DNA of 64,000 nucleotides from Dehalococcoidia bacterium (GCA_963663235.2 CAXXNO010000001.1:32001-96000); one strand, 5' to 3'; positions 28,959 to 54,020 are shown, numbered from the stretch's first letter. Program-made: numbers and translations. Notes: generated by a model from the sequence alone, not told the origin.

Positions 28959-30322
28959 CTACTCCAGCGTCCGGAGCCAGGCGTGGATATCGGCCACGTC
29001 CCTGTCCGGCACGCTGTCCGCCGGGAACGCCGGCATCTGATCCCGCGGGTTGCGGTACTGACGGATCTCTTCCTCCAGCGTCAGCGCCGGCGGCCCGATC
29101 TTCGGCCCGATGCCGCCTTGCCCTGTGTCGCCGTGGCACACGTTGCAGCCGTTCTGGAAGAACAGTTGCTGGCCCCGCGCCGGGTCGCCCCTCACGGGCC
29201 CTCCCCCGCCGCTTCCGCTGCCATCCCGGGGGCCGCCGCTTCTTCCTCCGTCACGGGAGGCGGCGCAGCGCCCAGCGCCGCCGCCAGCCTCTCCAGCCGC
29301 CAGGCCTCGTATTCGTCCGGCTCCAGGGCGCGCACGGTGAAGATCATGCGGGCGTGATCGCGCCCACAGAACTCGGCGCACTGCCCCTCATAGAGTCCCG
29401 CCTCGGTCACGTTGATCCACATCGACTGCACGCGCCCCGGCACGACGTCCAGCTTGTAGAGGAACTGCGGCGTGTAGAAAGAGTGGATGACGTCCTGCGA
29501 CGCCAGATTGAACCGCACGGTGATGTCCGTCGGCACGGTCACGATCGGCGTCGGCCGGATGACCTCTTCGCCCGTCGCCGGGTCGACGCTCACCAGGCTA
29601 TCCAGCCGCCCCGGCTCGACGGCGGTTTCGGTGCCGTCGAAGATCAGGTCGATCGGCGTGCCCGCGTCGTGCTGCTCCGCCACCGTCCCATCGACGGCTC
29701 GATCGACGGTGATGGCGCCCCCATCGATCGCGGTCACCCGCATGTGCTCCACATCCAGGCGGATCACCGTGCTGAAGGGCGCCAGGCCCTGGAACGCCCC
29801 CGCGTCGCTGACGGTCAGCACGCTGCTCACGGCGCCCTCGGCGACCGCCTCGGCGACCGTGACGTCCAGCCGTTCGGAGTAGCGGAAGGCCCAGGTCCAC
29901 TGCCGCCCCAGCACATCGACCGTCTCCACCCGCTCATCCTCCGGCGGCGACGATTCGATGTCGTCCAGCACCATGAACGTCACCACGAACAGCGCGATGA
30001 CGATCGCAGCCGGCGTAGCGGTCCAGATGACCTCCACCAGTTGGTTCCCGTGCGTCTGCTTGGGCAGCGCGTCGCCCCGGCGACGGTACCGCAGCACGAT
30101 GTAGATGATCGCCGCCTCGACGGCCACGAACACCACCGCCGCCACCACGAACACGATCATGTACAGCGCGCGGATGTCGTCGCCTTGCTCGCTCTTGGCC
30201 TCGGGCGGGAACACCTGCGCCCCCGCCACGCCCGCCGTGACGGTCAGCGCGAGGAATACAGCCACCAGTGCGACGTTGAGTCGCATGAGCCCAGACCTCC
30301 ACGCCATACCGACCTCGCGCAT
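28959..30322 (-). CDS. ctaC: cytochrome c oxidase subunit II with fused C-terminal cytochrome c (frameshift at 29225-29232)
   Basis: HGN..EVIWT, DVIHSF, CAEFCGRDHARM CuA site; CNVCH heme motif and MP ligand in the adjacent frame after a GSGSGGGG linker. Confidence 0.9.
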
Positions 30323-30355: not shown

Positions 30356-31360
30356 CTAGTGGCCCGCGGCGAACTGTTGAATGTCTTCGCTCAGCCAGCC
30401 CAGCGTGCCCAGCACGGTCAGCGCGATCCCCGCGCCCAGCAGCTCCGCGGGGAACACCACGCCGAAAGCGCTCAGCATGATACCAAGGGCCAGCACGATG
30501 GGGCTGGCGGACGGCGGCGCCACGTGCCCCGGCGCCCCCTCCGCGGCCGCCCCGTGAGCACCGACGGTGATCGCACCGCCGAACGCCAGGACGTCCTCCC
30601 ACAGCCAGCCCAGCGTGCCCGCGATCGTGATCGCCAATCCGGCTCCCAGCAACTCCGCCGGAAACACGACGCCGAACGCCGTCACCGCCGCGCCCAGGCC
30701 GATCAGGATGGGGAACGGGGATCCGTGCGCCTCATGCGCAGGGGCGTGCTCCGCCCCGGCTTCCAGGAGCGGCAGCGCCGCCTCGGTCGGCGCCGCCAGC
30801 GCGGCGGCCCCTTCTCGCCCTGCGGCACGCGGTGTCCCATACGCCGTCTCCATGCCCCGGCGCGCGGGACGGTAGACCCGCGGCCGCAGAACCGGCGGCA
30901 GCAGCATCATCAGCGCCCTCAGGACATCCGGCCCTGAATACGCGTCGATCACCTCAAAGCCGAACCGCGGCGTCCATTTCCAGACCCGCAGGCCCGCCAG
31001 TTTGATCCCGAGTTGCTGGCAGAGGCGGTTGGCGCGCCCCCCCTGGCCGGCCGGCACGTAGAGGTGCAGGGGGCCGGCCAGCGACAGCGGGAGCCAGTGC
31101 TCCCGCGCCATCTCCTCCGTCACCTCGTCCCGCAGCGTCACCACGCCGAGCATCACGATAAAGTGTCCCGGCTCTTGCACGGCCAGAATGTCTGGGTAAA
31201 TCCAGCCGCCGCTGCGGACCTGGATGCCCATCGTCCGCTCTGGGGCGTTGGTGACCGTCTGCCAGTTAGCGTGGGCCTCGTCGGGGAAGGCGAACCGCGC
31301 GCCCGCGATATGCTCGACGACATCGGCGAGCTTCGTGCGTTCCGCTTCGACCGTCGGCAT
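30356..31360 (-). CDS. hypothetical protein: soluble N-terminal domain plus duplicated oxidase subunit III/IV-like membrane hairpins
   Basis: First gene of the cox operon; two repeats of SP(F)PI...FGVVFPAELLGAG...GTLGWL.ED. Confidence 0.7.
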   Translation of the reverse strand: MPTVEAERTKLADVVEHIAGARFAFPDEAHANWQTVTNAPERTMGIQVRSGGWIYPDILAVQEPGHFIVMLGVVTLRDEVTEEMAREHWLPLSLAGPLHLYVPAGQGGRANRLCQQLGIKLAGLRVWKWTPRFGFEVIDAYSGPDVLRALMMLLPPVLRPRVYRPARRGMETAYGTPRAAGREGAAALAAPTEAALPLLEAGAEHAPAHEAHGSPFPILIGLGAAVTAFGVVFPAELLGAGLAITIAGTLGWLWEDVLAFGGAITVGAHGAAAEGAPGHVAPPSASPIVLALGIMLSAFGVVFPAELLGAGIALTVLGTLGWLSEDIQQFAAGH

Positions 31361-31540
31361 GCGCCCGCGCCCCCCGCCCTTCTTTGGACGTCGTGTGATG
31401 CCGAGACTCAGTCTGCGCGATAGTGCACCCTGGCACAAGCCCGGCAGGCACCCCCAAGCAACACGCCCATCGGCCGGGGTCAACGCTCCCGGCTGAGGCC
31501 GGCGCTTCGCGGTTTGGGGACGCGAGGGCGGTTGGGGGGT

Positions 31541-32755: not shown

Positions 32756-33586
32756 TTAGTCGGCCACCGATTCCACCCGGAAGCGCAGCACGCCGGAAGG
32801 CGCCGTGACTTCCACTTCGTCGCCCGCGCCGCTCCCCATAAACGCCCGTCCAACCGGGCTCGCCACCGAGATCTTGCCCGCTGTGGCGTTGGCCTCGTTT
32901 TGGCCGACGAGAGTGTACTCAACGGTCCTACCCGAGACAAGATTGGTCGCGGTCACGCTGCTCCCCATGTGCACCCGCCCGCTCACCTCGCTCCCGTGCT
33001 GCTCGAAGATGACCGCCCGGTTGATCTGCTGCTCCAGGTTCCGGATCCGCGCCTCTAGATGCGCCTGCGTGTCGCGCGCCGCGTCGAGCGGTGCGTTCTC
33101 GCGAAAATCCTTGTCGGCCATCGCCAGCTTGAGCGCCTCGGCGATCTCCGGCCGCTGCGCCCGCAACTGCTCCAAGTCCTCCTTCGCGGCGATCAGCCCC
33201 TCCGGCGTCATGCCCGCCGCTTCGTCGCGCGACGGCGCAGCGGAAGTCGCGATGGCGGAGCCAGCGCCGTCGCGCCGCGCGCGCGACACCTTCCTGACCC
33301 GCAGGTGCACGCCGAGGTTGGTCGCGGTCCACGTCTTCTTCTTCGCGTAGGCGAAGAACGCCTTCACCGGCAGGATGCGGTCGACGACCCCCACGCCTGT
33401 ACCCAACGCCTCCTGATACTGCGTCAGTTCGTGCCCGGTGACGCTGCTGAGCACGCGGCCTCCCCCATACCAGGAAACGAAACGATGGATCTCCACCCGC
33501 CCGCGCTGGTCGATGGCCTTCGCCTCGGCGTCGAGGTAGGCGGTCGCCGCAGCCTCGAGTGTTAAGCCCTCATCACTCTCCGCCAC
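32756..33586 (-). CDS. greA: transcription elongation factor GreA with ~110-aa N-terminal extension
   Basis: MTPEG, DKDFRENAPLDAAR, ISVASPVGRA; GTG start after GAGGGGAG. Confidence 0.9.
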   Translation of the reverse strand: MAESDEGLTLEAAATAYLDAEAKAIDQRGRVEIHRFVSWYGGGRVLSSVTGHELTQYQEALGTGVGVVDRILPVKAFFAYAKKKTWTATNLGVHLRVRKVSRARRDGAGSAIATSAAPSRDEAAGMTPEGLIAAKEDLEQLRAQRPEIAEALKLAMADKDFRENAPLDAARDTQAHLEARIRNLEQQINRAVIFEQHGSEVSGRVHMGSSVTATNLVSGRTVEYTLVGQNEANATAGKISVASPVGRAFMGSGAGDEVEVTAPSGVLRFRVESVAD

Positions 33587-33709
33587 GTCCGCTCCCCTCG
33601 TCCGCCGGCTGATCTCGCACTCTGCATTATCCATCGTATGGGCGAGGCGGATCGCGGTTCAAACGCACCCTTGCCCGCCAGCGCCTCAGCGCCCCACCAT
33701 GGACCCAAC

Positions 33710-34483
33710 ATGGCCCGCTCTCCCGATTCCACCCCATTCGATTCCATCGCGTTGCCCGCGGTCAACGCGGCGCTGGCTGCCGCCGGTTTCGATCTGCCGG
33801 GGGAGCAGCAGCGCCGCCTCGCGGCCTTTCTCGATGGCCTCCTCCAGGCCAACGTCCGCCTCAACCTCACGCGCATCACCGACCCGGCCGACGCCATTGT
33901 GCGCCACGTGATCGAGCCGCTCGCCGGCTGGCTCCTCCTCCGGGACCGCCTGCCTTCCGGCGCCGTCCTGGACGTGGGCAGCGGCGGCGGCGCTCCCGGC
34001 CTGCCGGTGGCCATCGTCCAGCCGGACCGGACGATCCTGCTGATCGAGACGCGGGAGCGCAAGGCCCATTATCTGGAAGAGCAAGCCCGCGCCCTGGGCC
34101 TGACCAACGTCCGCGTCCTGTGCGACCGCGCCGAGCGCGTCGGCCGCGGCCCTGCCCGCGAGTCGGGCGCCGCCGCCCTGACGCGCGCCCTGGCCCCGCT
34201 CCCCGAAGCGCTGGAGATCCTTCTGCCCCTGGTCGCGGTCGATGGGGTCGCCGCCGTGTTCTCCGGCCCGGGCCTCCCCGCGCAACTCGACGCCGGCCGC
34301 GGCGTCGCGACGCTCCTCGGCGGCGCTCCGCCCGAGACGCAGCGGGTCGACTGGCCCACCGGCGACCGCACGGTCCTGCTCGCCACGGTCCGCAAGGTCG
34401 CCCCCACGCCGGAGCGCTTTCCCCGCGGCACTCGCGCGATGCGCCGCGGCCCCCCTCAGGCGACCACCTCGCGCGCCCGGTAG
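33710..34483 (+). CDS. rsmG: 16S rRNA m7G527 methyltransferase
   Basis: NLTRIT, RH, LDVGSGGGAPG, RAE, TRA, TPERFPR. Confidence 0.93.
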   Translation: MARSPDSTPFDSIALPAVNAALAAAGFDLPGEQQRRLAAFLDGLLQANVRLNLTRITDPADAIVRHVIEPLAGWLLLRDRLPSGAVLDVGSGGGAPGLPVAIVQPDRTILLIETRERKAHYLEEQARALGLTNVRVLCDRAERVGRGPARESGAAALTRALAPLPEALEILLPLVAVDGVAAVFSGPGLPAQLDAGRGVATLLGGAPPETQRVDWPTGDRTVLLATVRKVAPTPERFPRGTRAMRRGPPQATTSRAR

Positions 34484-35670
34484 TCGGCGATCGCCGCCTC
34501 ATCCATGCCGATCGACGCCAGAATCGCGTCGGTGTCCTGCCCCGGGTAGGGGGCGGTATGCCGGATCGCCCCCGGCGTGGCGGAGAGTTTCGGTCCCACG
34601 CCCACTTGCTTGACCGGCCCCACCCCCGGCGCCTCCAGCTCCACCACCATCCGCCGGTGCAGGTTGTGCGGGTCCCCGAACGCCTCCGCCAGTGTGTAGA
34701 CCGGTGCGACGCAGATGTCCTCGTCGAACAAGAGGCGGAACCATTCATCGCGCGTCTTCGTTTTGAACGCCGCGGTGAACGCCTCCGCCAGCTCCCGTTT
34801 CGTCGCTTCGTCGTCCGTGTACTGGTGTTCGGTGAGATCGTCCCGGCCCAGCACCTTGCACAGACTGGCGAAGAACCACGGCTCCACGGAGCCGATGCTG
34901 ATCCACTTCCCGTCCGCCGTCTCGTAGACGTTGTAGTAGGGCCATCCGCCGTTGAGCCGGTGCGTCTCCGGCGCCATGACATCCCCGTCCGCGAAGGAGG
35001 CGGCCGCCAGCCCCGTCAGCAACGACATCACCCCGTCCGACATCGCCACATCGACGGATTGCCCCCGCCCCGTCTGCGCCCGCGCCAGCAGCGCCACGCA
35101 GATGCTGAACGCGGCCATCAACCCCCCACCCGCGTAGTCCGCGATGATGTTCACGGGGATCGCCGGCGGCGTCCCCTTGCGGCCGATCATGCCCAGCGCG
35201 CCGGCCATGCTGATGTAGTTGATGTCGTGCCCTACCAGTTGGGCGTAGGGACCGTCCTGCCCGTAGCCGCTCAGCGAGCAGTAGACCAGCCGCGGGTTCC
35301 GCGCCGCCAGCGTCCCGTAGTCCACGCCCAGCCGCTGCGTCACGCCGGGCCGGTAGCCCTCCAGCACCACGTCGGCGTCGGCGGCGAGCCGGTAGAAGAT
35401 CGCCCGTCCCTCTTCCGTCTTGAGGTTCAGGCGCAGGGAGCGCTTGTTGCGACCGAAGACGTTGTAGGCCGTGCGGCGGCGTCCCTCGGGGGTCTCGTTG
35501 TCGCCCCGCATGTCGGGCCGCTGCCGGCCGGCCCGTCGGCCGCGGGGCGCGCCCGCCTCCTCCACCAAGATCACGTCGGCCCCCATGTCGCCCAGCAACA
35601 TCGAGCAGTACGGGCCCGGCGCGAGCCGCGACAGGTCCAGCACCGTGATCCCCTCCAACGCCGCCTCCAT
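34456..35670 (-). CDS. CaiB/BaiF family III CoA-transferase
   Basis: LDLSRLAPGP, RNKRS, EGYRPGV, GHDINY, ADYAGG. Confidence 0.95.
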   Translation of the reverse strand: MEAALEGITVLDLSRLAPGPYCSMLLGDMGADVILVEEAGAPRGRRAGRQRPDMRGDNETPEGRRRTAYNVFGRNKRSLRLNLKTEEGRAIFYRLAADADVVLEGYRPGVTQRLGVDYGTLAARNPRLVYCSLSGYGQDGPYAQLVGHDINYISMAGALGMIGRKGTPPAIPVNIIADYAGGGLMAAFSICVALLARAQTGRGQSVDVAMSDGVMSLLTGLAAASFADGDVMAPETHRLNGGWPYYNVYETADGKWISIGSVEPWFFASLCKVLGRDDLTEHQYTDDEATKRELAEAFTAAFKTKTRDEWFRLLFDEDICVAPVYTLAEAFGDPHNLHRRMVVELEAPGVGPVKQVGVGPKLSATPGAIRHTAPYPGQDTDAILASIGMDEAAIADYRAREVVA

Positions 35671-35699: not shown

Positions 35700-36923
35700 T
35701 CAGGCCACGATCTCGCGCGCGCGGTAGTCGGCGATGGTGGCCTCGTCGATCCCATGCTCCCGCAAGATCGCATCGGTCTGCTCCCCAGGGTACGGGGCGC
35801 TGTGACGGATCTCGCCCGGTGTCTCCGAGAACTTGGGGGCGATCCCGATCTGTTTCACCGGCCCCACGCCCGCCGCCTCCACGTCCACCACCATCCGCCG
35901 GTGCAGGTTGTGTGGATCGGCCGACGCCTCCGCCAGCGTGTACACCGGCGCGACGCAGACATCGAGAGCGGCGAGATCACGGAACCACTCGTCGCGGGTC
36001 TTGCGCTTGAACGATGCACGCAGGAACTCGGCGATCTCCCGGCGTTTGGCCGGATCGTCGCTCCACTGGTGCTCGGCCAGCTCTTCGCGGCCCAGCTCGC
36101 GGCACAGATCGGCGAAGAACCACGGCTCGTTGGCGCCGATGCTGAGCCACTTGCCGTCGGCCGTCTCGTAAACGTCGTAGTTGGGCACGCCGCCGTTGAA
36201 GCGGCTCGTCTCCGGCGCCAGGTTCTCGCCCGTGTTGAAGTGGGTGCCCGCCAGCCCGGACAGCAGCGACATCACGCCGTCCGACATGGCCGTGTCGATG
36301 TACTGCCCCTGTCCCGTCCGCTCCCGCGCCAGCAGCGCCACGCAGATGCTGAACGCGGCCATCAGCCCCCCGCCCGCGTAGTCCGCGATGGTGTTCATCG
36401 GGATCGCCGGCGGCGTCCCCTTGCGGCCGATCATCCCCAGCGCCCCGGCGATGCTGATGTAGTTGACGTCGTGCCCCACCAGTTGGGCGTAGGGACCGTC
36501 CTGCCCGTAGCCGCTCAGCGAGCAGTAGACCAACCGTGGATTCCGCGCCGCCAGCGTCTGGTAGTCCACGCCCAGCCGCTGCGTCACGCCGGGCCGGTAG
36601 CCCTCCAGCACGACGTCCGCCGCGTCGGAGAGCCGGTAGAAGATCGCCCGTCCTTCTTCCGTCTTCAGGTTGAGGCGGATCGAGCGCTTGTTCCGTCCCA
36701 GCGCGTAGGCCGCCGCCCGCCGACGCCCCTCGGGGCTGGCGTCGCCCCGCAGGGAGACGGTGGGCGTCTTGTGCACCTGGCCGCTGCGGCGCCCCGCCGC
36801 CAACCCCGCCTCCTCCACCATGATCACGTCGGCGCCCATGTCCGCCAGGAGCATGGAGCCGTAGGGACCGGGCGTGAGCCGTGATAAGTCGACGATCTTG
36901 ATGGCCTCCAGCGCCAGCGTCAC
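35700..36923 (-). CDS. CaiB/BaiF family III CoA-transferase (tandem paralog)
   Basis: Same motifs (GHDVNY); RBS GAGGAG before GTG. Confidence 0.95.
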   Translation of the reverse strand: MTLALEAIKIVDLSRLTPGPYGSMLLADMGADVIMVEEAGLAAGRRSGQVHKTPTVSLRGDASPEGRRRAAAYALGRNKRSIRLNLKTEEGRAIFYRLSDAADVVLEGYRPGVTQRLGVDYQTLAARNPRLVYCSLSGYGQDGPYAQLVGHDVNYISIAGALGMIGRKGTPPAIPMNTIADYAGGGLMAAFSICVALLARERTGQGQYIDTAMSDGVMSLLSGLAGTHFNTGENLAPETSRFNGGVPNYDVYETADGKWLSIGANEPWFFADLCRELGREELAEHQWSDDPAKRREIAEFLRASFKRKTRDEWFRDLAALDVCVAPVYTLAEASADPHNLHRRMVVDVEAAGVGPVKQIGIAPKFSETPGEIRHSAPYPGEQTDAILREHGIDEATIADYRAREIVA

Positions 36924-37081
36924 GGCATCGACTCCTCTTCGCGGATCCCGCGATCGCGCGGGCCGATCGGCATGATCGAGAGCGGCTGGCCCGGCGTCAA
37001 GGCTGCGCCTCCTGCGGCGGGCTGATCCGGGCATTGCCGCCGCCGAACCGCCTTGCCTACGATGACGGAGTTGAATCTCGT

Positions 37082-37157
37082 GGGGCTGTAGCTCAATTGG
37101 GAGAGCGTTTGACTGGCAGTCAAAAGGTAGGGGGTTCGAATCCCCCCAGCTCCACCA
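37082..37157 (+). tRNA. tRNA-Ala(GGC)
   Basis: GGGGCTG acceptor with G3:U70, anticodon arm TTTGA-CTGGCAG-TCAAA, GGTTCGAATCC, CCA end. Confidence 0.98.
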
Positions 37158-37281
37158 GCCGCTCAATCGCGTCCACTGTTCCCACGCACCGAGCAGGCAG
37201 CGAACTCCCCACACAGGGGTCCCCGTCGCCCCCGCCCGCTCCGCGGCCGACGGGAAGCGGCTTGGCTGCCGCCCGTTTGGG

Positions 37282-51956: not shown

Positions 51957-52433
51957 ATGGCCGTGCAGAAGCCGGTCCCCATCACCCAGAACGGGTTGGA
52001 GCGCCTGCGCAAGGAGCTGCACGAGCTCGTGACCGTAAAGCGCCCGGCGACGGCCGAGCGCATCCATGAGATCCGGGAGCTCTCCCCCAACACCCAGGGC
52101 GACGGCGAGTACGAAGACGCCAAGAACCAGCAGGCGTTCGTCGAGGGACGCATCCTCACCCTGGAGAAGATCCTGGCCAACGCCGAAGTCATCGACGAAG
52201 ATGCCGCCCACAACACCGACACCGTTCATCTGGGCGCCACGGTGACCGTGCAGATCGGGGAAAAGTCGCAGGAGCTCACCATCGTCGGCATGCCCGAGGT
52301 GGACCCGGCCCACGGCTTCGTCAGCGATGAGTCGCCCGTGGGCAGGGCGCTCTTGGGGCGCGCCGTGGGCGACACCATCGAGGTGAGCGCTCCCGCCGGC
52401 ACCATCGAGTACAAGATCAAGGCCATCCGCTAG
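51957..52433 (+). CDS. greA: GreA family factor with atypical coiled-coil tip
   Basis: ITQNG, EYEDAKNQQAFVEGRI, VSDESPVGRALLG; upstream of lysS. Confidence 0.9.
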   Translation: MAVQKPVPITQNGLERLRKELHELVTVKRPATAERIHEIRELSPNTQGDGEYEDAKNQQAFVEGRILTLEKILANAEVIDEDAAHNTDTVHLGATVTVQIGEKSQELTIVGMPEVDPAHGFVSDESPVGRALLGRAVGDTIEVSAPAGTIEYKIKAIR

Positions 52434-52523
52434 CGCCGCCGACCGTACTGGCGACCGTTAACGGGCGTCCCGCGGGGCGCCCGTTCTACTATGGCGAGCG
52501 GCCTACCTGGAGGGATGCGCCGC

Positions 52524-54020
52524 ATGGCGGACCAGCCTAGTGAGCGTCTGCGCGAGTTGTTCGAGCAGCGACGGCGGAAGGCCGACGCCTTGCGCGAGCG
52601 CGGCATCGACCCCTACCCGCCCCGCACGGCCGCGAAGCTGACCCCCGTCGCGACCGCCCGAGCCCGCTTCGAGCGCTGGGAACAGGGCGCGCTCAAGCGC
52701 CAGCCGTCGGTGCACGTCGGCGGTCGCATCACCAGCGTCCGCGACTTGGGCAAGCTGGCCTTTCTCGACCTGCGAGACGGCTCCGGGGTCATCCAGCTGT
52801 TGTGTCGTCGCAATCGCCTCGGTGAGAGCGGCGCGGCCGTGCTGAAGGCGCTCGACCTGGGCGACTTCGTGGAGTCGAGCGGACCGCTGATCCGCACCAA
52901 ATCCGGCGAGATCTCCGTGGAGGCCCGGGACCTCCGGCTCCTGGCCAAGGCGCTACGGCCCCCGCCGGAGAAGTTCCACGGCCTGCAGGACGTGGAGGCG
53001 CGGTACCGGCAGCGCTACCTGGACCTCCAAGCGAACCAGGACTCCCGCGACCTCTTTATTACCCGCTCACGGGTGATCTCGGCCCTGCGCCGCTGGATGG
53101 ACGACCGCGGCTTCCTGGAGGTGGAGACGCCGGTGCTGCAGCCGGAGGCGGGTGGCGCCGCCGCGCGACCCTTCGTCACCCACTTCAACGCGCTGGATGA
53201 AGAGCGCTACCTCCGCATCGCGCTGGAGCTGCACCTCAAGCGGTTGATCGTCGGCGGCTTCGACAAGGTCTACGAGGTCGGCCGCATCTTCCGCAACGAG
53301 GGCACCTCCACCACGCACAACCCCGAGTTCACGATGATGGAGTCCTACGAGGCCTACACCGACTACCACGGGGTCGCCGCGATGGTCGAGGAGCTCGTGG
53401 CGCACCTCGCGCAGACCATCCTCGGCGCCACCACCATCCCCTGGGGCGACGCCACCATCGACCTCGCCCCGCCCTGGCGCCGCCTCACCATGCGCGACGC
53501 CCTCATGCAGTACGCCGGCATCGACTTCCTGGAATACCGCACGGCGGACGCCCTCCACGACGTGCTCCAGCGGCACGGCATCCCCATCCCGCCGGATGCC
53601 TCCTGGCACAAACTGCTGGGCGATCTGCTGGCCCACGCGGTCGAGCCCCACCTGATCCAGCCCACCTTCTTAATGGACTGGCCCGTGGAGATCTCGCCCC
53701 TGGCCAAACGCACCCCCGACGACGACCGCCTCGTGGAGCGCTTCGAGGCGTACGTGGCCGGCTGGGAGATCGCCAACGCCTACAGCGAGCTCAACGACCC
53801 CATCGACCAGCGCCGGCGCTTCCAGAACCAGGTCGCCCTCCGCGCCGCCGGCGACGAGGAGGCGGAGCTGATGGACGAAGACTTCCTCGTCGCGCTGGAG
53901 CACGGCATGCCGCCCACCGGCGGCCTCGGTATCGGCATCGACCGGCTGATCATGGTCCTCACCAACTCCCGCTCCATCCGCGACGTCATCCTTTTCCCGC
54001 AACTGCGGCGGAAGGAGTAG
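52524..54020 (+). CDS. lysS: lysine--tRNA ligase (class II)
   Basis: RYRQRYLDL, GGAAARPF, FRNEG, HNPEF, GMPPTGGLGIGIDR. Confidence 0.98.
   Translation: MADQPSERLRELFEQRRRKADALRERGIDPYPPRTAAKLTPVATARARFERWEQGALKRQPSVHVGGRITSVRDLGKLAFLDLRDGSGVIQLLCRRNRLGESGAAVLKALDLGDFVESSGPLIRTKSGEISVEARDLRLLAKALRPPPEKFHGLQDVEARYRQRYLDLQANQDSRDLFITRSRVISALRRWMDDRGFLEVETPVLQPEAGGAAARPFVTHFNALDEERYLRIALELHLKRLIVGGFDKVYEVGRIFRNEGTSTTHNPEFTMMESYEAYTDYHGVAAMVEELVAHLAQTILGATTIPWGDATIDLAPPWRRLTMRDALMQYAGIDFLEYRTADALHDVLQRHGIPIPPDASWHKLLGDLLAHAVEPHLIQPTFLMDWPVEISPLAKRTPDDDRLVERFEAYVAGWEIANAYSELNDPIDQRRRFQNQVALRAAGDEEAELMDEDFLVALEHGMPPTGGLGIGIDRLIMVLTNSRSIRDVILFPQLRRKE

Follow-up and report, generated by a model that had tools for sequence, protein, structure and literature searches.

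An open reading frame (ORF) on the minus strand of a 64,000-nucleotide stretch of DNA from a Dehalococcoidia bacterium (GCA_963663235.2 CAXXNO010000001.1:32001-96000; this whole stretch is called the window below) raises the question of what a second folded domain could be doing at the N-terminus of a GreA transcript-cleavage factor. The ORF runs from an ATG at 33634 down to a stop codon at 32756 and encodes 292 amino acids (aa). A shorter, GTG-started version of it (32756..33586, minus strand, 276 aa plus stop) is the likely gene, as discussed below, but residue numbers throughout count from the ATG at 33634. An initial annotation, made from the sequence alone, had described a GreA fused to a tyrosine-recombinase core-binding (SAM-like) domain, and all of the segments that it quoted, TLEAAATAYL, EIHRFVSWYG, RVLSSVTGHELTQYQEAL, RILPVKAFFAYAKKKTW, TNL and DFREN, are present in the translation. 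The best overall explanation of our results, to which we give a probability of roughly 0.6, is that this long GreA carries a recombinase-derived N-terminal domain (N-domain) that serves as a nucleic-acid tether.

We analyzed the Gre part of the protein with Pfam. Both Gre domains were recognized: the N-terminal coiled-coil domain (PF03449, GreA_GreB_N; residues 142-209, 33008..33211, minus strand) with an E-value of 3.3e-18 (66.1 bits, cut-off 24.5), and the C-terminal globular domain (PF01272, GreA_GreB; residues 218-291, 32762..32983, minus strand) with an E-value of 8.5e-23 (80.6 bits, cut-off 26.9). In the AlphaFold2 (AF2) model the coiled-coil domain is made of two long helices, and HMMER aligned residues 139-291 end to end with E. 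coli GreA (1grj) at an E-value of 5.4e-20. Counted along this alignment, D176 and E179 fall on D41 and E44 of E. coli GreA, the tip carboxylates that are needed for stimulating transcript cleavage. The tip of the coiled coil (D176-F-R-E179, 33098..33109, minus strand) therefore retains the D-x-x-E motif, as the initial annotation had said. Neither D176 nor E179 varied among 44 aligned long homologues, and the surrounding block A-D-K-D-F-R-E-N-A-P-L-D-A-A was almost invariant. Judged from its sequence, with both domains and the tip residues in place, the long protein belongs to the Gre family. Its coiled coil, acidic pair and C-terminal globular domain are shared with canonical GreA (1grj), from which it differs by about 115-140 additional N-terminal residues, which comprise a folded domain of about 90 aa and a disordered linker.

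The additional residues are not a chance open frame, because they are kept in the top 120 homologues. A word-indexed search gave 1792 matches among 8000 scored candidates; the best 120 were 250-310 aa long and covered 83-100% of the query, and those with a name were called GreA and came from Chloroflexi or Dehalococcoidia metagenome-assembled genomes (MAGs), their precomputed Pfam assignments listing the two Gre domains only. In the 44-homologue alignment F52, W55, R60 and N106 were invariant, and Y33, G57, H68, G78, F93, K99, H110 and R112 were at least 90% conserved. Mean pairwise identity was 0.45 in the N-domain (residues 24-113; 33296..33565, minus strand), 0.20 in the linker (residues 114-141; 33212..33295, minus strand), 0.62 in the Gre coiled coil and 0.54 in the Gre C-terminal domain. 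The difference between 0.45 and 0.20 suggests that the N-domain is under purifying selection. Residues 24-113 are structured in the model, in agreement with the roughly 90 residues that had been singled out ahead of the Gre part. No paralogue of the N-domain was found in its own genome, the other matches there having E-values of 0.065 and 0.31. The catalytic domain of the recombinases (PF00589, with its R-H-R-Y residues) had no match in the protein, in which the linker and GreA follow the N-domain; because this catalytic domain is absent, the protein is not a recombinase. Present annotation (Pfam, NCBIfam and the source names) misses the N-domain entirely, and NCBIfam gave no match in residues 1-136 of the window protein.

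The fold of the N-domain was predicted with AF2 for residues 18-125, using an alignment of 60 rows and no templates. The model (mean predicted local distance difference test score, pLDDT, 86.7; predicted template-modelling score, pTM, 0.79) is a four-helix bundle with a short fifth helix, the helices lying at model positions 9-19, 26-39, 50-60, 66-82 and 90-93. When it was compared with 48,161 representative PDB chains using VIA-align, ranks 1-20 were all of the tyrosine-recombinase fold, with Z from 12.7 to 7.4; 19 of them were integrases or recombinases or their N-terminal domains, and rank 20 was the phage Phi3T DNA-binding protein SroF. The scores included 12.7 for 3nrw (root-mean-square deviation 2.4, 94 residues aligned), 12.0 for lambda Int (1z1b), 11.3 for 2oxo and 10.9 for XerD (1a0p), and the first unrelated fold appeared at rank 21 with a Z of 6.8. 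A Foldseek comparison of the N-domain, which the initial annotation had proposed, put the same family at the top, with 3nrw (TM 0.72), Tn1549 Int, lambda Int and XerD as leading matches, at weak E-values.

Several results weigh against a GreA with a recombinase-derived tether. Pfam found no match in residues 1-138 of the window protein even at E<=10. We assembled an alignment (A3) of 76 rows, 75 N-domains cut from Chloroflexota genome loci and the window's own; none of these domains reached the gathering threshold of a Phage_int_SAM family, and the window's own was unmatched at E<=10. Sequence searches of the PDB, with the single N-domain and with the 76-sequence profile, gave only chance-level matches (E 1 or higher), and Foldseek gave nothing at E<=0.001, its best match standing at 7e-3. 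On the Gre side, the NCBIfam GreA equivalogs stayed below their cut-offs (NF001263 and siblings, best 132.4 bits against 145; TIGR01462, 123.3 against 139). Because the match spans model positions 6-158 of 160, we read this shortfall as divergence and not truncation, and it bears on the naming of the protein and not on its membership of the Gre family. The genomic context of long greA is weakly conserved and gives no functional hint. In recombinases the core-binding domain clamps DNA jointly with the catalytic domain, and a core-binding domain on its own may bind weakly or be re-used for protein contacts. Finally, helical bundles may score a middling to high Z in VIA-align by chance, and we therefore sought evidence independent of the model.

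Single Pfam scans of the 76 domains at E<=10 matched Phage_int_SAM_4 in 12 (best E 0.011), Phage_int_SAM_1 in 11 (best E 0.0017), Phage_int_M in three and SAM_5 in one, these being the families most often matched. We then compared A3 by hhalign with a profile (A4) of 28 genuine SAM_1 domains from Chloroflexota integrases. The two aligned over 83 columns, from helix 2 to the basic tail, with a probability of 96.05% and an E-value of 3.7e-9, whereas the control, A3 against short Gre proteins, gave 0.05% and an E-value of 0.82. A hidden Markov model (HMM) of A3 was also run over 151 Chloroflexota genomes of at least 85% completeness. It gave 33 strong matches, every one of them a long GreA; 15 further matches were weak (E 1e-5 to 7e-4) and lay in frames of 303-428 aa. 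All 15 weakly matched proteins have a Phage_integrase catalytic domain and, at the position of the match, a SAM-like domain; three of these matches coincide with SAM_1 matches in the source set of A4, and the other 12, checked individually, likewise fall on a SAM_1 domain. Language-model neighbours of the N-domain fell into SAM-like clusters as well (top score 0.90), which we took as a lead only. These results support the initial assignment, and we consider it highly probable that the N-domain is homologous to the tyrosine-recombinase core-binding domain but has diverged to below the Pfam thresholds. It shares with the core-binding domains of lambda Int (residues 75-160), XerD, 3nrw, 2oxo and 1a0p the same four-helix fold and a basic C-terminal tail, and in the profile alignment its N-x...K tail sits at the position of the integrase 'NP...PK'. 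It differs from the integrase domains in what follows, the Gre coiled coil here and the catalytic domain there, and in having an invariant signature of its own, F52, W55, G57 and R60.

The N-domain of the window protein is basic, with an isoelectric point (pI) of 9.6. A pI above 8 was found in 75 of the 76 N-domains, with a median net charge of +4, and in 22 of the 28 integrase SAM domains, with a median of +3. Nine positions are at least 85% K or R (R51, R60, R86, K91, K98, K99, R112, R114 and K115), and they are located on helix 2, the loop after it, helix 4 and the tail. The linker of the window protein has a basic start (RKVSRARR) and is of low complexity after that; among 44 homologues it is 18-29 aa long and variable in sequence. 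The full-length AF2 model had a mean pLDDT of 82.7 and a pTM of 0.39, with a pLDDT below 50 at residues 117-135. In this model the two modules appear to be flexibly tethered, and no fixed packing is predicted between them.

How could such a protein work? The Gre part would act like canonical GreA, stimulating the cleavage of backtracked RNA, with its C-terminal domain docked on the rim of the secondary channel of RNA polymerase and its acidic coiled-coil tip reaching the active site, as in the solved complexes of GreB with RNA polymerase (6ri7 and 6rin). PMC8195603 describes the GreA/B C-terminal domain as contacting the rim helices of beta-prime at the secondary channel. Since the N-terminus of the coiled coil would lie at the channel mouth, the N-domain would have to stay outside the channel, and we estimate that the tether could reach several tens of angstroms. 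There the basic N-domain would bind nucleic acid, most likely duplex DNA with low sequence specificity, as isolated core-binding domains do. Such anchoring would maintain a high local concentration of GreA at the template or at elongation complexes and raise its effective affinity for the channel. DNA binding by the N-domain is something we infer from its fold and charge, and the proposal that DNA specifically is what the tether holds is tentative, somewhat less probable than its negation.

If the N-domain does not hold nucleic acid, this recombinase-derived domain may have been turned into a protein-protein adaptor that binds RNA polymerase (perhaps at an insertion specific to the lineage and close to the secondary channel) or some other factor, and in this way anchors or regulates GreA. 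Domain I of eukaryotic TFIIS, which is helical, N-terminal and dispensable for cleavage and which recruits partners, would offer a parallel, and the layout of a helical bundle, a flexible linker and a catalytic hairpin is what an adaptor could have. In addition, other Gre proteins could compete for the channel in 21 of the 33 fusion-bearing genomes, so that extra affinity for the polymerase could be useful. Several of the invariant or highly conserved residues (F52, W55 and F93) are aromatic or hydrophobic and not basic, as a protein-binding surface might require; however, they belong to helices 2 and 4, where they correspond to hydrophobic core positions of the integrase SAM domains, and for this reason they probably stabilize the fold. 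The basic character found in nearly every N-domain and the nine conserved K/R positions suit nucleic acid better, and no neighbouring partner gene is conserved. We regard the adaptor as the strongest competitor, yet a rather unlikely one.

A nucleic-acid-binding N-domain could also read a specific DNA sequence or structure and send GreA to particular promoters or genes, which would make the protein a locus-specific regulator. Core-binding domains help sequence recognition in recombinases, and the domesticated recombinase-fold DNA binders MrpR (8a0a), SroF (9rd5) and ALOG (8p5q) are among the structural matches, both of which speak for such targeting. However, in 12 of the 33 genomes the fusion is the sole protein with a Gre domain, which argues for a general role, and the surroundings of the gene are of a housekeeping kind and weakly conserved. 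No conserved DNA motif is known for the N-domain, though no search aimed at one was made, and we consider a locus-specific regulator improbable. An equally long shot is the bolder form of the tether, in which the N-domain would make a DNA reader of the main Gre factor, the only one in many Dehalococcoidia-type genomes, and place GreA on the template at particular sequences or structures, such as sites prone to backtracking or conflict. If that were true, transcript cleavage would be a DNA-targeted activity and would not depend on diffusion into the channel alone; to our knowledge, no DNA-directed secondary-channel factor of this kind has been described. Recruitment to specific DNA sites seems less likely than non-specific tethering, which we favour. 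Very improbable, lastly, is a convergent resemblance or a structure-prediction artefact in an unrelated, lineage-specific helical domain: the identity to the structural matches is only 5-18%, the window's own N-domain has no Pfam match and no PDB sequence match, and helical bundles often score a high Z, but the hhalign result (96%, E 3.7e-9, against 0.05% for its control) is independent of structure, the weak HMMER matches fall exactly on integrase SAM-like domains in 15 of 15 cases, and the top 20 structural matches all come from a single fold family, the scores falling off before an unrelated fold appears.

Recombinase-derived folds in transcriptional or chromosomal roles without recombination have precedents in the plant ALOG domain (8p5q), SPbeta MrpR (8a0a), Phi3T SroF (9rd5) and yeast Ndc10 (3sqi), all of which matched the N-domain structurally at Z 4.7-7.4. 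These are regulators or kinetochore proteins, and none of them is fused to a secondary-channel factor. In the case of ALOG, Iyer and Aravind reportedly derived the family from recombinase N-domains in 2012. Longer proteins with a Gre part at the C-terminus are also on record, namely NF004969, the 'transcript cleavage factor/unknown domain fusion protein' (718 positions), and NF011309 (906 positions). Their N-terminal regions are far longer, and only their C-terminal Gre ends match the long GreA; we presume that the two families represent chlamydial and spirochaete proteins. Our search of open-access papers and bioRxiv preprints, without supplements, found no description of a fusion between GreA and a core-binding domain, and PMC8195603 deals with GreA/B-C domains in conflict systems and not with the long GreA. 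The superfamily annotation of InterPro/Gene3D may already flag the N-domain. What seems to be new here is the recombinase-derived N-domain on an intact GreA, long Gre proteins and domesticated recombinase folds each being known already.

The usual picture of a Gre factor is a small protein of two domains that diffuses to RNA polymerase and competes for its secondary channel. In the bacterial lineage described here, which includes small genomes with this protein as their only Gre, the catalytic GreA bears a recombinase-derived and probably nucleic-acid-binding domain. If the N-domain ties GreA to DNA or to the polymerase, the lineage is a natural experiment on the control of secondary-channel occupancy and on whether proofreading and the rescue of backtracked complexes can be enhanced or targeted. 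The fusion further adds a bacterial case of a core-binding domain domesticated away from recombination to those of ALOG, MrpR/SroF and Ndc10.

We determined the distribution of the fusion in the same 151 genomes. It was present in 33 of them: the window's genome, 15 of its 16 class-mates and 17 of the 134 others. All 151 genomes had at least one Gre C-terminal domain (PF01272); the fusion was the sole PF01272 match in 12 of the 33, and the other 21 had two or more. The 12 genomes with a sole Gre are mostly 1.3-1.9 Mb in size, and several are single contigs at 99-100% completeness. One genome counted in these tallies, G039, is flagged as unpublished; it lacks an N-domain match, and no claim depends on it alone. 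In a collection of genome contigs, relatives of the N-domain were found in at least 198 of 564 pattern-matching stretches. The best 80 loci were labelled Chloroflexota, Dehalococcoidia or SAR202, with two exceptions, a 'bacterium' and a 'Calditrichales' MAG contig. Long GreA proteins, which the initial annotation had mentioned for Dehalococcoidia, are indeed widespread in genomes with that label. The Calditrichales contig (locus L091, JAIWFK010000024.1) has a long greA of the Chloroflexota type, and its title gives a coverage of about 0.67x; mis-binning is the probable explanation, rather than a fusion outside the Chloroflexota.

A profile search of 1.84 billion representative proteins gave 523 matches at E<=0.001, of which 337 were at E<=1e-10, and the N-domain was N-terminal in all of the best 150 of the 523. 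Fifteen short or odd-length representatives among these 150 were considered as stand-alone domains or other fusions and rejected, as they look like fragments, frameshifts or chimeras: nine enter the start of the Gre coiled coil and then break off or shift frame, five stop in or just after the linker, and one (P0122) runs on into unrelated sequence. We also built a maximum-likelihood tree of the Gre parts of 57 long and 60 short proteins, taking every second row of two match lists and leaving out P0002, which is identical to the window protein, and three rows without the exact tip motif. A single branch separated long from short proteins with 100% support in the SH-like approximate likelihood ratio test (SH-aLRT), placing the Gre part of the long protein in a clade apart from the short Gre proteins of the phylum. 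The clade is consistent with a single origin of the fusion, of which the tree is a weak test, because it is unrooted and because its rows were picked by similarity to each paralogue, so that the split is partly expected.

The window also holds a second, short Gre gene (51957..52433, plus strand), located directly upstream of a lysyl-tRNA-synthetase-like ORF (52491..54020). Its product has 158 aa and both Pfam Gre domains, and bears N and G in place of D41 and E44 of E. coli GreA; its nearest relatives have S/N or N/G at the tip positions. Because the tip of the short Gre is non-acidic, no Gre of the window's genome other than the long protein has the canonical pair. Thermus Gfh1 (2f23/2eul) has the two-domain Gre fold in common with the long protein (E ~1e-16). 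Compared with the Gfh1 type, the long protein has the canonical D-x-x-E, whereas its short paralogue departs from it, and the short Gre may be a non-cleaving, Gfh1-like secondary-channel factor. We asked how general this loss is among short Gre proteins. Among 18 that are co-resident with a long form, both tip positions were acidic in 12, mostly as D-x-x-D, and not in six. Among 20 from genomes without the long form, both were acidic in 19, and the remaining one could not be aligned at the tip. A universal loss of the tip in co-resident short Gre proteins was therefore rejected, 12 of 18 having retained the acidic pair. The loss was seen in the window's genome and in three class-mates (G072, G099 and G135), which make up three of the six exceptions.

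The start of the long greA gene deserves comment. A GTG at 33586, sixteen codons inside the ATG-started ORF, is preceded by the Shine-Dalgarno-like GAGGGGAG (33592..33599, minus strand, read from the sequence) at a spacing of 5 nt, and no comparable site was seen upstream of the ATG at 33634 when the sequence was inspected directly. The 276-aa frame is therefore favoured over the 292-aa frame. Three further points favour it: the homologues open 7-10 residues ahead of the conserved 'TL(E/R)xAA' motif; residues 1-21 have a pLDDT below 50 in the full-length model, which predicts disorder; and a start at the ATG would leave 3 bp to a divergent rsmG-like ORF at 33638. The upper coordinate of the initial annotation, 33586, thus probably marks the true start codon.

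With the GTG start, about 50 bp separate long greA from the divergent rsmG-like ORF (33638..34483, plus strand). Among 80 related loci, rsmG was a (divergent) neighbour of long greA in 19 and citrate synthase in 16. Two tandem ORFs (34456..35670 and 35700..37214, both minus strand) are clear paralogues with long identical stretches in their translations; they may be family III CoA-transferases, and homologues of both occur near long greA in 5 of the 80 loci. Another ORF, at 30356..31483 (minus strand) adjoins a cytochrome-oxidase-subunit-II-like ORF (29192..30322) and has homologues in 6 of the 80 loci. Its C-terminal half contains the hydrophobic segment 'FGVVFPAELLGAG..T..GTLGWL.ED' as a tandem pair, as if a membrane hairpin had been duplicated within the protein.

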